The notes beneath the pieces are model-generated. The model did not search any database and had not been told where the DNA came from. It worked only from the letters and a program-made list of their open reading frames with translations. The position numbers and the translations under genes were made by a program. Shown here one piece after another: positions 19,491 to 49,544 of a DNA stretch of 64,000 nucleotides. This DNA is from Heterodontus francisci. Its lineage: Eukaryota. Position 1 is the first letter of the stretch; every line of letters starts with the position of its first letter. The DNA is taken from positions 28,288,762 to 28,352,761 of the forward strand of contig NC_090395.1 of NCBI RefSeq assembly GCF_036365525.1, read 5' to 3'.

Positions 19491-20722
19491 TAGTCAGCGA
19501 TGGTCAGCACAGTTTTATGAAGGGTAGGTCGTGCCTCAAAAACCTTGAGTTTTTCGAAGAAGGTGACCAAACAGGTGGATGTGGTGTATATGGATTTCAG
19601 TAAGGCGTTTGATAAGGTTCCCCACGGTAGGCTATTGCAGAAAATACAGAAGTATGGGGTTGAAGGTGATTTAGAGCTTTGGATCAGAAATTGGCGAGCT
19701 GAAAGACAGAGGGTGGTGGTTGATGGCAAATGTTCATCCTGGAGTTTAGTTACTAGTGGTGTACCGCAAGGATCTGTTTTGGGGCCACTGCTGTTTGTCA
19801 TTTTTATAAATGACCTGGATGAGGGTGTAGAAAGGTGGGTTAGTAAATTTGCGGATGACACGAAGGTCGGTGGAGTTGTGGATAGTGCCGAAGGATGTTG
19901 TAGGGTACAGAGGGACATAGGCTGCAGAGCTGGGCTGAGAGATGGCAAATGGAGTTTAATGCGGAAAAGTGTGAGGTGATTCACTTTGGAAGGAGTAACA
20001 GGAATGCAGAGAACTGGGCTAATGGGAAGATTCTTGGTAGTGTAGATGAACAGAGAGATCTTGGTGTCCAGGTACATAAATCCCTGAAAGTTGCTACCCA
20101 GGTTAATAGGGCTGTTAAGAAGGCATATGGTGTGTTAGCCTTTATTAGTAGGGGGATCGAGTTTCGGAGCCACGAGGTCATGCTGCAGCTGTACAAAACT
20201 CTGGTGAGACCGCACCTGGAGTATTGGGTGCAGTTCTGGTCACTGCATTATAGGAAGGATGTGGAAGCTATGGAAAGGGTGCAGAGGAGATTTACTAGGA
20301 TGTTGCCTGGTATGGAGGGAAGGTCTTACGAGGAAAGGCTGAGGGACTTGAGGTTGTTTTCGTTGGAGAGGAGGAGGAGGAGTGGTGACTTAATAGAGAC
20401 ATATAAGATAATCAGAGGGTTAGATAGGGTGGATAGTGAGAGTCTTTTTCCTCGAATGGTGATGGCAAACACGAGGGGACATAGCTTTAAGTTGAGGGGT
20501 GATAGATATAGGACAGATGTCAGAGGTAGTTTCTTTACTCAGAGACTAGTAGGGGCGTGGAACGCCCTGCCTGCAACAGTAGTAGACTCGCCAACTTTAA
20601 GGGCATTTAAGTGGTCATTGGATAGACATATGGAATAGTGTAGGTCAGATGGTTTCACAGGTCGGCGCAACATCGAGGGCTGAAGGGCCTGTACTGCACT
20701 GTAATGTTCTAAAAAAATTCTA
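19491..20722 (+). mobile_element. Relatively young 5'-truncated CR1 LINE (RT domain and 3' UTR)
   Basis: ORFs 19545..19979 and 19949..20638 give [33 protein letters not shown] and LVRPHLEY, with few frameshifts. Confidence 0.95.
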
Positions 20723-25380: not shown

Positions 25381-25445
25381 GCCGCAATGAGTTGATAGCA
25401 AGATACATCAAACTACGGACTGGCAAAACACGAACAAGGAAGCAG
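25381..25445 (+). CDS. TEAD: TEAD-family transcription factor, internal exon (TEA domain helix 2 to start of helix 3)
   Basis: ctgacag|GC CGC AAT GAG...AAG CAG|gtaaag. The 65 nt translate as (G)RNELIARYIKLRTGKTRTRKQ, the invariant TEA-domain sequence, with phase-1 start and phase-0 end as in vertebrate TEAD genes. Paralog not resolved. Confidence 0.97.
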
Positions 25446-26419: not shown

Positions 26420-26770
26420 TTAAAAAGTGTTCGATAGGATAGAGCGAGAGAGAGCGACTATTTCCTCAGGTGGGGGAAATCCAGGACAAGGAAGCATAGC
26501 ATTAAAATTAGAACTCAGCCAGTGGTGATGTCAGGAAGCACTTCTGCACACAAAGGGTAGTAGAAATCTGAAACACTCTCCCCAATAAACCCTGTTGAGG
26601 CTGGGAGTCCGTTGGAAATTTCAAATTTGAGATTGCTATGTTTTTATTAGACAAAGGGTATTAAGGGTTAGGGGACCAAGCAGATCGATGGCGTTAAGAT
26701 ACACATCAGCTATGAGCGAATTGAATAAAACAGGCTCAAGGGCTGAATCACCTCCTCCTGTGCCTATGTT
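26420..26770 (+). mobile_element. CR1 3' fragment
   Basis: ttcgataggatag...aggaagcacttct.cacacaaaggg...gggctgaat...ctcctcctgt.cctatg. Confidence 0.75.
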
Positions 26771-27329
26771 TTATTCTAATGGAAGCACATTAATATTGAA
26801 AGCTACTAAATCACAATGAAGCTGCTCTTAGTGTTATCCAATAGATATTTTTAAAACCTTGCAATTCAGAGTCCAATTGTGTAATCCACAGTTTGTTGTC
26901 CCCCTCTTCTCCTGAAGGGCAGACTGTACTGCTGCCTATAGCCGTAAATTTTGTAAAATCCAAATATATAAGAGAAGAGGCACTGTCGTTAAACATTTCC
27001 CCTCACTTGTGAAATTTAGTTTGAAATCTAGCTGGGAGATAATGAATGAAGCTTCCTTCCTCAGATTGGGTTTGGTCATTCCATAGACCACACCCTGCAA
27101 TGAAGAAAGCAAGCAAGGGAATCGATGCATTTGATTTGATCTGCTATAATTTGTTGCTCTATTGTAACACATAGCCTAGTCATTGAGAAGATACAGCTAT
27201 TAACGGATGGTTCAGACTTAGTGTCTTATAAAGATTGGCCTAGTCACCAGGTGAAGCTTTGCCATCTTATGCACTGTCATAACACAGACCCTTCTTGATT
27301 AGATTAGGCTATCAGCATCATTGTCTAGG

Positions 27330-28342
27330 TGGGATCACAACTTGAGCACAGAAGAGTTAAGGGTAGGGATTGTGCATAAATTGGGAGAGCTGTTCCACAG
27401 ACTAGTCATGCAACAGCCAGACAGTCATACTCACGGAAACATACATGTCCCAGACTCATCCATCACCAACCCTGGCGATGTCCTGTCACACTGGCAGGAC
27501 AGACCCACCAGAGGTGGCAGCGCTGTGGTATACAGTAAGGAGGGAGTGGCCCTAGGAGTCCTTAACATTGACTGTGGACTCACATGAAGTCTCATGGCAT
27601 CATGAGTGCCTCCGTAGCACTACTACTGAGAGAGTCCTGAAGGATATAGCTGCCAAACTTGGCCGACAGCCGGTGGTGAGAGAACCAACAAGAGGGAAAA
27701 TCCTACTTGACCTTGTCCTCACCTGTCTAGCTGTTGCAGATGCATCTGTCCATTACAGTATTGACAGGAGTAACCACCACACAGTCCTTGGAGATGAAAT
27801 CTCATCTTCACACAGAGGACCTATCATGTGTGGCACTACTGCCATGTTAAATGGGATAGACAAAGAACAGATCTAGCAGCTCCAAATTGGACATCAATGA
27901 GGTGCTGTGGGCCAACAGCAGCAGCAGCATTGTATTCAACCATAATCTGTAACCTCATGGCCTGGCATAGCCCAAACTCTACCATTACCATCTAGCCAGG
28001 GGGAGGAGTGTAGGAGAGCATACCTGGAGCAGCACTAAGCATACCTAAAAATGAAGCGCCAACCTGGTAACACTACAAACAACTAAACAGAGGAGGAGGC
28101 TCCACAAACATCCCCATTCTCACTGCTGGGAGAGTTCAGTGCAGAAGACGAGGTTGAAGCATTTGCAACAATCAGCCAGAAGTGTTGAGTGCATGATCCA
28201 TCGCAGTCTCCTTCTGAGGTCCCCACAATCATAGATGCCAGTCCTCAGACAGTTCAATTCACCCCATGTGATATCTAGAAACAGCTGAAGGCACTGGATA
28301 CAGCTAAGACGATGGACCCTGACAACATCCCGGCTGTAGTAC
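27330..28342 (+). mobile_element. RTE-type LINE (clade tentative), endonuclease/linker region with deletions
   Basis: QDRPTRGG, VVREPTRGKILLDLVLT and ALDTAKTMDPDNIPAVV-like coding remnants. Confidence 0.7.
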
Positions 28343-28344
28343 CT

Positions 28345-28492
28345 GTTTGGATTTTCTCCCCATCCAATATTTTTATAACCAGTAAAAATTTTGAATGTCT
28401 GATTTTTCTGCGGTGTTGCTTGCAGCAGTGACCTGAAGATCAGTTTTTCAAGCCTAGAGACTTCAGGTCAATCTTGGAGGCTTGGCAAGTTA
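28345..28492. mobile_element. MITE fragment, same family as 1990-2300
   Basis: ccccatccaatattttt...cctagagact.caggtcaatcttggagg.ttggcaa. Confidence 0.5.
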
Positions 28493-29039
28493 GTAAAGCC
28501 ATATCTTAGAAGCAGGTGGGTGAGTAATGCCATTATAAATAACCCTTTGGATTAGGCAGCAGTTGCCACAACAGTCAGACCAGGTCAAATCTTACCACCC
28601 AGTCCTTGCTGTAGTCATTCGAATAGAGATTTTAGAAGATCAAAGATTTCACTGATTGAGCGAACTCTCCTAATGGGGAATGGCACTTTAAGGGCACGTT
28701 GGTTGGAAATGGTCTGCCCGCAGCCCCAACTGACTTTAAAATGGATGGCCAGTGAGTTGCAGATTTGTGATCTCCTCAGGTGAAAAGGAGAATGGTGTTC
28801 TGTAATTATCTAGAACCTGCTACACGAGCAGAATAACTGAATTTCTGACCTCCACATTGATGGGCCACAATTGAAAAGGTTAAATTCCCAAGCAACTAAC
28901 CATTTGTTTGTGGACCTGCTCCGGTCTTAACCATTTCCCTAACAAATTCAAATCCCTGCTCATTATCCAGCAAATTTCTCAACGTTTTACTGTGTAGGAC
29001 TGGGGTCGAGGCAGATCCTTTACAACACCAGTGCAGTTT

Positions 29040-29170
29040 ATACACTTGAATAGGAACAGAATTGCAGGGCTATGGGGAAAGAGCAGGGGAGTGGAACTAA
29101 TTGAATGCCACTTTCCAAGAGCCAGCACAGGCACAATGGGCTGAATGGTTATCATCTGTGCTGCATGATT
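29040..29170 (+). mobile_element. CR1 3' tail fragment
   Basis: gcagggctatggggaaagagcagggg...agagccagcacaggcacaatgggctgaatgg. Confidence 0.75.
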
Positions 29171-29256
29171 ATATACACTGATAAACAGCACGTTAGTAAA
29201 ATGGAAAAATCTTACTAGTGTACGGGAGGGCATATGGAACTATACCTCAGCATGTT

Positions 29257-29304
29257 GGGGGGGGGGGGGGGGGGGGGGGGGGGAAAAAAAAAAAAAAAAA
29301 AAAA
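29257..29304 (+). repeat. Compound homopolymer G27-A21
   Basis: Direct count: G at 29257-29283, A at 29284-29304. Confidence 0.9.
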
Positions 29305-29643
29305 GAGGCCTTTTGAATTACAAATAGATAATCTTTGATGACCTCCAGTGGCCTGATATCAGACGTAGTAGGTGAAGAAAGATCCCACTGTCCACTGGGC
29401 TGAAACCATTATGTGATCAGTTAATTACTTTGACTTAAGTGAAATTGGAGACACTCAGAGCTAGAGGAAAGCAAGTAAACCAGACAGCATTTTGCTTAAT
29501 GACCTGTTTTTAGTAGAACCCTATGGTAACTCGGGGCTCATTACTGCTTGCCATGACAACAAATGCTGGAACTTCTTTCAAGAACAAAAAAAAAGTGAAA
29601 ACTTGAGATATTTTGCCTGCCAAAAAGTAATATGGCTGACGGT

Positions 29644-29752
29644 TGCATGGCTGTTTGCAGCTGCAAAGTATTATGGGAGCTTGGGGAAGGGGTGGGGAAA
29701 GGGAGATGGTGATGGAAGGCCTGGCTCTGCATGCCCAAACTAACTAACTAAT
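29644..29752 (+). promoter_or_regulatory. Candidate splicing-regulatory cluster (2x TGCATG, 3x overlapping ACTAAY)
   Basis: TGCATG at 29644 and 29728; ACTAACTAACTAAT at 29739-29752, about 90 nt upstream of exon A. Confidence 0.55.
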
Positions 29753-29838: not shown

Positions 29839-29901
29839 GTGTCTAGTCACATACAGGTGTTAGCCAGGAAGAAAGTGCGAGAGTACCAAGCAAGCATCAA
29901 G
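29839..29901 (+). CDS. TEAD: TEAD exon, helix-3 variant A (VSSHIQVLARKKVREYQASIK)
   Basis: gacatag|GTG TCT AGT CAC...ATC AAG|gtatgt; 63 nt, phase 0/0. Closest to the TEAD3-type KKVREYQ exon. Confidence 0.95.
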
Positions 29902-29987
29902 GTATGTGCAGCCGGCATGAATCCGGGGGATATTCAGCTCCATGGTTACAGGCTCTTCTTTTTCTTCCCCTTTGCTCTTTCCTGCAG

Positions 29988-30050
29988 GTGTCTAGTCATA
30001 TGCAGGTTCTTGCCCGAAGGAAAGCTCGTGAGATTCAGTCCAAGCTGAAG
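29988..30050 (+). CDS. TEAD: TEAD exon, helix-3 variant B (VSSHMQVLARRKAREIQSKLK)
   Basis: Long pyrimidine tract then cctgcag|GTG TCT AGT CAT...CTG AAG|gtatgc; 63 nt, phase 0/0. Resembles the RRK(S/A)REIQ(S/A)KLK exon of TEAD2/TEAD4. Confidence 0.95.
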
Positions 30051-31189
30051 GTATGCGCTTCTCTGCTTTGGCCTTGTGGTTGGCTGCTGGCTGAGGCTGA
30101 ACTGCAGATGTACAGAGTTCTGATAACACCAAATCCAAATTCTTTGTTAATGTACTGTACACTTCTATTGGGGAGGGGTCACAGTTGCACTGGCAGATCT
30201 GGCAATGCTCTCTCTGAACATTAATAATTTTCACACACGCACCTGTAAACTGCTGTTGCTGCAGCAACCAGTTTTTTTTTTTTAAAAAAGCGCTGAGCTA
30301 CCACAGGGTTCCACTAAAGGCAGCTCAACAATTTGTGGCATATAGGATATTCTAGATCAAGCTGAGTTGGTTGCTCTTTAGATCCATTGGGACCTGGGTT
30401 TCTGTGGGATAGTTCTCTGCCACAGAGTGCCAGAAAATCCTCTCGCCCGTCCCCACGCCACTCTCCCCATGTGGAAAAGAGCACAATATTTGCATACTGA
30501 AGACTTCTCATACTTGTGAATGGACTAGTACAATGCCTGGCAAGTGTGGTGCACTTGCCCAAATTCTGTGTGAATTTGCAGCTGGGTGGCTGATAAAATG
30601 AAGGACTTTACAACATTTCACTAGTGTCTGATCAGGGGAGTGTGAAATGTCACCCTGCCACCACCCCAACCCATAGTTCATATCACAGCTGAGATGGCTG
30701 TCACTGAAATTCCAGCCTAAGAGATGATATTTTTGAGTACACTTGACCAAGAGCCTGGCAATTCACCAACGTAGTCACCTTGAAGCTTAATGGTTTACCA
30801 ATAGCAGTCTGCAACAGTGACTAAGACACTCCTTTCTCTAATTCCCACCCTTAGAATACCAAGTTACTCTAGGATACAGGCCCATGGGTAGCAGCGGACT
30901 GGTGCCACCTTGGTGAAACAGCCATTCTTTACCAAGCATGTACAATGCAAAGCTAATTTTCCAATGTGTGCCCCAGCATAGAGCTTCACCCACTAGTTCA
31001 TGCATCAGGAAACTGCGGGCGCAGTGATTTCCTGATGGTTTATGGTTAACAGAATTGCCTGTCCATGGTATACGAGAGAAAACAAATTATAATTAAAAAA
31101 ATTTTTTTTTTAAAGTCCTCCCTTGTGTGTCAACGGGCAGTTTGACCAGATGATCACAGCTGAGCCTAATCCTGTCCCCACACATACAC

Positions 31190-49480: not shown

Positions 49481-49492
49481 GCAATGAATGTG
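49481..49492 (+). CDS. TEAD: TEAD 12-nt microexon (AMNV)
   Basis: cttttcttgaattcag|GCA ATG AAT GTG|gtaagt. It sits at the position of the 4-aa insert in TEAD3 (AMNL), TEAD2 (ALNV) and TEAD1 (VTSM), and has a consensus donor. Confidence 0.88.
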
Positions 49493-49538: not shown

Positions 49539-49544
49539 TGCATG
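49539..49544 (+). promoter_or_regulatory. Candidate RBFOX site downstream of the microexon
   Basis: TGCATG about 47 nt after the microexon donor. Confidence 0.55.

Follow-up and report, generated by a model that had tools for sequence, protein, structure and literature searches.

The window analyzed here is the whole 64,000-nucleotide stretch of the Heterodontus francisci genome (NC_090395.1, positions 28,288,762 to 28,352,761), and it covers only part of one TEAD gene. Best matches and tree placement identified this gene as the TEAD3 (TEF-5) ortholog rather than TEAD1, TEAD2, or TEAD4. The exon part at 54651-54782 showed 100% identity to TEF-5-like proteins of Heterodontus and Scyliorhinus, and a 24-row tree restricted to the sequence that follows the alternative exons placed P0003, the best match, inside the TEAD3 clade at 100/99. 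The features of the locus are collected in Table 1, in which A and B denote two homologous exons that encode helix 3 of the TEA domain and its basic tail.

Table 1. Features of the TEAD3 locus in the window
Feature	Position	Strand	Description and basis
Upstream TEAD3 exon, 65 nt	25381..25445	+	Helix 2 of the TEA domain, the first part of helix 3, and the basic pair on the N-terminal side of the bipartite NLS; matched by shark TEF-5-like proteins in tblastn; AG/GT sites
TGCATG	29644, 29728	+	Upstream of exon A; candidate splicing-regulator motif
ACTAAY, three overlapping copies	29739-29752	+	Upstream of exon A; candidate splicing-regulator motif
Exon A, 63 nt, phase 0-0	29839..29901	+	Helix 3 and basic tail, A type (RKKVR...ASIK)
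Intron A-B, 86 nt	29902..29987	+	36-nt pyrimidine tract
Intron element	29925..29954	+	Common to a TEAD1-type fish locus; core CCATGGTTACAGGCT; local alignment
Exon B, 63 nt, phase 0-0	29988..30050	+	Helix 3 and basic tail, B type (RRKAR...SKLK)
Exon B donor region, GTATGCGCTT	30051..30070	+	Same in TEAD1-type and TEAD3-type fish loci (alignment)
Alternative microexon, 12 nt (AMNV)	49481..49492	+	Positional counterpart of TEAD1 exon 6 (PMC9410899); found by motif
Next conserved exon, 135 nt	54651..54785	+	Basis for the TEAD3 identification (tblastn, tree)

Several other features were observed in the window. A 75-nt in-frame exon in the proline-rich linker (58792-58866, +) was present in all three elasmobranch TEAD3 models compared (P0003, P0007, and P0019) and not in the Callorhinchus model P0023, so it is possibly an elasmobranch-specific exon. 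One TGCATG lies at 49539, downstream of the microexon. Within the intron upstream of exon A, the stretches 26470-26650, 27300-28470, and 28970-29310 displayed very high depth and many loose ends in the contigs described below, and we regard them as repeats or transposon fragments. The translation of 19533-19859 (+) resembles a LINE reverse-transcriptase fragment.

Exons A and B are both open, with AG directly in front and GTATG directly behind. They are identical at 42 of 63 nucleotides and 14 of 21 amino acids, with six synonymous codon differences among the 14 common residues, and the seven amino-acid differences fall at exon positions 5 (I/M), 11, 13, 16, and 18-20. The BLOSUM62 cross-score of A and B was 72, compared to 30-34 for the best match elsewhere in the six frames of the window, and this six-frame comparison revealed no third copy. 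The pair thus consists of adjoining homologous exons of equal length and splice phase, which is how tandem-duplicated exon substitutions are recognized in PMC8373072. An initial annotation had described two 63-nt phase-0 exons 86 nt apart with AG/GT sites and no stops; these coordinates and translations were reproduced, and its upstream junction at 25445 is the end of the upstream exon. The first 20 nt of exon A (29839-29858; 380-399 in the TEAD1-type fish locus L003) were identical in shark TEAD3, fish TEAD3, and fish TEAD1, synonymous sites included, which suggests an exonic splicing constraint. Downstream of exon B, at 30095-30150 (+), short blocks of similarity to L003 were seen, for which no chance comparison was made.

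The A/B event in TEAD3 is already known in human. The supplement of PMC8373072 lists TEAD3 event 210 as an internal tandem-duplicated substitution with Vertebrata as the last common ancestor (row 212, rows 458-459; transcripts ENST00000338863 / ENST00000639578), flagged also in the Lam and the Kondrashov and Koonin lists. The human list of PMC7954323 supplement file 5 contains the TEAD3 gene id ENSG00000007866, and a search of this supplement did not find the TEAD1 gene id. The human counterparts of A and B are chr6:35480312-35480374 and chr6:35480060-35480122, respectively. Human and shark share the gene, the two 21-aa exons, and their order, and each exon of the window is identical to its human counterpart at 19 of 21 residues. 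Human TEAD3 thus carries both exons, and the shark pair, its ortholog, is neither new nor shark-specific. The idea that reference TEAD3 uses A while the shark gene makes two paralog-like ends is not supported by these published data. The A-B intron differs in length, at 86 nt in shark and 189 nt in human TEAD3. At positions 5 and 13, shark B reads M and A and human TEAD3 B reads L and S, so the serine of the RRxS motif is absent from shark B.

What is added here is the common origin with TEAD1, the pair in amphioxus, and the conservation of the intron element. Literature searches of sources other than subscription journals and bioRxiv supplements gave no title or abstract on a TEAD1/TEAD3-shared or amphioxus origin, and within the same scope the A-B intron element common to fish TEAD1 was not found in print. 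The catalogue of PMC8373072 lists no TEAD1 event, and all five of its 'tead' entries are TEAD3. The accessible parts of PMC5867882, PMC9554796, PMC6628201, and PMC9741552 contain nothing on the TEAD A/B pair; the word 'TEAD' is absent from the main text and from one supplement of PMC9741552.

The splicing of both exons was evaluated with contigs from four runs of two studies, which are presumed to be RNA from relatives of this shark and show intronic differences from the window; their depths were not used to rank the exons. One X4 contig contained the joint 25445->29839 with GT..AG ends, which connects the upstream exon to A. On exon A, the match of an X4 contig stops at 29902, with the contig running on; this is the end computed for joining A while skipping B, and an X3 contig on exon B spans 29984-30051, equal to the ends computed for joining the upstream exon to B. 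The ends computed for A->B joining (29903 and 29986) were not those observed, although the skipping inference rests on single contigs and on differences of 1-2 bases in their ends. No A->B joint occurred among the 15 joints listed of 21 and the 32 pieces listed of 2784. Both exons are thus spliced in contigs of related sharks. The 21 chondrichthyan TEAD3 models comprised 5 with A only, 8 with B only, and 8 with A+B; with the contigs, likewise from relatives, the 13 single-exon models provide the substitution transcripts by which PMC8373072 recognizes such events.

These data support the prediction that both exons are used alternatively. On the stricter prediction that they are mutually exclusive, the indications are mixed: the contig ends fit single-exon use, whereas 8 of the 21 models and a mouse Tead1 transcript hold both exons, and from the models the exclusion may be leaky. 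A+B models are common in other vertebrates also, where the queries favored such models. The mouse transcript, with a 63-nt exon 4 plus exon 5, is used as 'full length' in 10.64898/2026.04.17.719138, and its exon 4 would be A, judging from its size and position. PMC9410899 describes TEAD1 exon 5 as alternative and states that TEAD3 has no cassette exons.

Alternatively, A and B could be independent cassettes with A+B co-inclusion as a major product. Helix 3 would then be completed by A, and B would follow it with another basic helix or half of an NLS. With 63 nt in each exon, co-inclusion keeps the frame; A+B occurs in lamprey and amphioxus models in addition to the eight chondrichthyan ones, and the mouse Tead1 construct containing exons 4 and 5 proved stable and localized to the nucleus (10.64898/2026.04.17.719138). 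However, the observed contig ends and 13 of the 21 models correspond to one exon, some of the A+B models are no more than predictions (P0016, for example, is labeled 'hypothetical'), and the human TEAD3 event is curated as a substitution in the supplement of PMC8373072. An AlphaFold model of the A+B form was of low confidence (mean pLDDT 53), with one helix at 61-106 and values of about 86 over the first half of A and 49-58 over residues 81-100, and it was left out of the evidence. We consider co-inclusion as a major product unlikely, and prefer the use of one exon at a time.

The A-B intron contains no adenine from +50 to the final CAG, and the last adenines before the pyrimidine tract lie at +47 and +49. 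An adenosine branch point would therefore lie at most 49 nt from the A donor, which also argues against co-inclusion. The intron element scored 50 in local alignment to L003, a score reached by 0 of 2000 dinucleotide shuffles, and more weakly, 38, to the TEAD3-type fish locus L015 (3 of 2000 shuffles). Its translation was recognizable by eye in 11 of 11 TEAD1 models and 7 of 11 TEAD3 models reading through the intron; those without it were two pufferfish and two mammalian TEAD3 models. The adenine of GGTTAC is at +47 in shark (29948), +49 in L003, and +62 in L015, and the shark adenine is the predicted branch point for exon B.

The steric threshold between donor and branch point is about 50 nt (PMC7969005), and a branch point too near the A donor would hinder A->B joining by steric exclusion. 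The candidate is borderline at this limit, so the exclusion would be leaky; at the threshold, a branch point would make A->B joining harder but still possible, in keeping with the mixed annotation. Against this step stand the GGTTAC adenine of L015, which lies above the threshold, and the 189-nt human intron. OGDH 4a/4b and alpha-tropomyosin, whose exons are exclusive through steric, distant-branch-point mechanisms, share with shark TEAD3 a short intron, a long pyrimidine tract, and a branch point, here a candidate, less than about 50 nt from the upstream donor. The branch point in shark TEAD3 is only predicted, at +47 to +49 and so at the threshold, whereas in human OGDH it lies well below it, at 25-41 nt; in addition, TEAD3 has annotated models that include both exons.

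Exclusion by RNA structure (docking/selector) found no support, as the fold z-score was 1.07 and 177 of 200 shuffles were equally stable. No favorable covariation was found around the exons in a partly misaligned alignment of three sequences, which gives low power. The 300 nt with the motifs upstream of exon A hold 2 copies of TGCATG and 3 of ACTAAY, compared to 0.13 and 0.11 expected from the window frequency. We take TGCATG as an RBFOX-type label and ACTAAY as a QKI/branch-point-type label of candidate sites.

At the protein level, the Pfam TEA match ends at exon position 9, and up to there A and B differ at position 5 only. The other six differences, at positions 11-20, lie past the match. 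The claim that the recognition helix is swapped was therefore overstated. TEAD4 S100 and Q103, which were named for ATOH1 binding, map by spacing to positions 3 and 6 and are identical in A and B; we take both residues to contact DNA. Exchanging A for B would hardly affect the first half of helix 3, which reads the bases; the changes would fall in the end of the helix and in the basic cluster on the C-terminal side of the bipartite NLS. In Scalloped, the bipartite NLS spans this segment, and a refined C-terminal consensus K(K/R)X(K/R) is quoted in PMC3121794. Four of the five basic residues are kept in both exons, and in our own reading the consensus fits A and not B. When exon 4 was missing, part of the mouse Tead1 protein was found in the cytoplasm in some cells (10.64898/2026.04.17.719138). 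This would agree with the NLS reading if exon 4 is A, though the comparison is of A+B with B. With helix 3 nearly unchanged in its first half and the NLS cluster altered, the switch would, more likely than changing the choice of motif, tune import or binding strength. Literature searches outside the subscription journals found no A-versus-B binding or import data.

The emphasis of the initial annotation had been on DNA specificity, with TEAD3-like and TEAD4-like recognition made from one gene. The identification of helix 3 as the recognition helix (PMC7547805 and PMC12672301), which is mostly encoded by the exon, speaks for such a change. Against it, positions 1-10 differ by I/M only, the S100 and Q103 equivalents are the same in both exons, and all five solved TEA chains found are of B type, so that an A structure for comparison is absent. 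A change of specificity is accordingly quite improbable. A paper from 2000 reportedly described TEF-1 isoforms with altered DNA binding and may bear directly on the A/B swap. A PKA-site switch, with RRxS in B presumably as the site position, cannot apply to the shark gene, whose exons A and B carry V and A, respectively, at position 13. An effect on import or affinity remains our preferred reading of the swap.

The same two exons occur beyond TEAD3. TEAD1 carried A then B in Callorhinchus (P0035 and P0038), Mobula, Xenopus, teleosts, birds, and mammals, and the Lethenteron and Lampetra models did so as well. The alternative helix-3 exons of TEAD1, a paralogous gene (mouse exons 4/5; RefSeq/UniRef TEF-1 isoforms), are A-type then B-type and 63 nt long, as in shark TEAD3. 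The fish TEAD1 locus also has an A-B intron of about 90 nt with the intron element and B donor in common with shark TEAD3, and in both genes a 12-nt microexon follows the pair. In PMC9410899 and 10.64898/2026.04.17.719138, these TEAD1 exons are treated as cassettes and not as a duplicated pair. Both exons are thus intact and conserved in order in TEAD3 and TEAD1 of jawed vertebrates and in a lamprey gene.

Across six genes, amino-acid identity averaged 19.2/21 between A exons and 18.2/21 between B exons, compared to 13-17/21 between A and B within a gene. DNA identity among the window, L003, and L015 was 51-54/63 for A-A, 50-56/63 for B-B, and 40-43/63 for A-B within one gene. The exons are therefore closer to their counterparts in other species than to their neighbors, another feature by which PMC8373072 recognizes these events. 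In an exon tree of 21 columns, the vertebrate A exons fell together on one side, though support was weak (75/85), and AU tests rejected a clade of window A+B (p 6.6e-05) and a clade of all TEAD3 exons (p 0.043). The exons thus group by type, as had been anticipated, and the gene-specific duplication is rejected. All seven TEAD2/TEAD4 protein rows retrieved were B only, in agreement with the B-type use proposed for these genes, and the five solved TEA chains found in the PDB are from TEAD1 and TEAD4. The proposal that the duplication predates the split of the TEAD paralogs gains support from A then B in TEAD1 and the lamprey gene and from the type-wise grouping. Judged from these sequences, the pair is likely older than the split of the vertebrate TEAD genes: one duplication in a pre-vertebrate single TEAD gene would have been kept in TEAD1 and TEAD3, and A would have been lost in TEAD2 and TEAD4, as indicated by the seven protein rows and the PDB chains.

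Outside vertebrates, three Branchiostoma models had two tandem exons, the first with a hydrophobic position 13 and an S-I-K end as in A. This first exon joined A at 69/78, and an independent amphioxus duplication was not rejected (AU test, p 0.36). The 22 metagenome loci matching the exon-A pattern included 3 vertebrate-type pairs and 6 non-vertebrate-type pairs; the remaining 13 had one copy within the available flank. The six non-vertebrate-type loci (L005, L006, L008, L017, L019, and L021; L008:801-960) represent a TEAD gene with two tandem helix-3 exons separated by a 34-nt gap. An intron of this length can probably not be spliced, which would bar co-inclusion in this gene. The placement of the pair as its own clade gave p 0.061 in the AU test. 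P0123 (303 aa) is a read-through prediction with three diverged tandem copies of a longer exon version covering TEA helix 2 and helix 3, and its sequence suggests a cluster of three alternative exons in another organism; no other protein with this arrangement was found among the 150 matches listed in a representative search.

That the pairs of TEAD1, TEAD3, lamprey, and amphioxus are separate duplications or were homogenized by conversion is very improbable: the exon seems duplication-prone, as in the six 34-nt loci and the three copies of P0123, and the clade of amphioxus exons 1+2 was not rejected, but the vertebrate pairs share their order, cluster by type in DNA and protein, and have the intron element and B donor common to TEAD1 and TEAD3.

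Our main reading, to which we assign a probability of roughly 80%, is that the shark exons are orthologs of the human TEAD3 pair, each spliced in alone, that the pair likely predates the TEAD1-4 split, and that A-B joining is likely hindered by a close branch point. A broader reading is offered tentatively, at less than even odds: the A/B switch would be chordate-old in a single ancestral TEAD gene, policed by the branch-point element and setting NLS strength, with TEAD2/TEAD4 fixed for B and the non-vertebrate pair from a re-duplication or an earlier duplication. In this broader reading, the A-like then B-like exons of amphioxus would make the switch a feature of the ancestral gene, and the non-vertebrate pair with its unspliceable 34-nt gap would suggest that two helix-3 tails were selected for repeatedly.

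In Hippo-YAP signaling, TEAD proteins provide the DNA-binding output, and this splice switch was kept for more than 500 million years in two of the four paralogs. It is under-studied, since all five solved TEA chains found are of B type and no A-versus-B comparison was found in the papers covered. The contribution of the shark sequence is not the discovery of the switch; it serves as an outgroup that exposes the conserved intron element and a concrete branch-point prediction.

Three database labels disagreed with the sequence. P0127, labeled Lampetra, groups with teleost tead3b at 100/99 and was rejected as lamprey evidence, and P0257, labeled TEF-3, is TEAD1 by sequence and was rejected as a TEAD4 with A. 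Callorhinchus P0290, labeled 'TEF-1', groups with TEAD2. In two annelid TEAD models (P0026 and P0272), the segment encoded by the next exon (the KALQ..SSAQIV block) is repeated in tandem, which we regard as a separate duplication downstream of helix 3.
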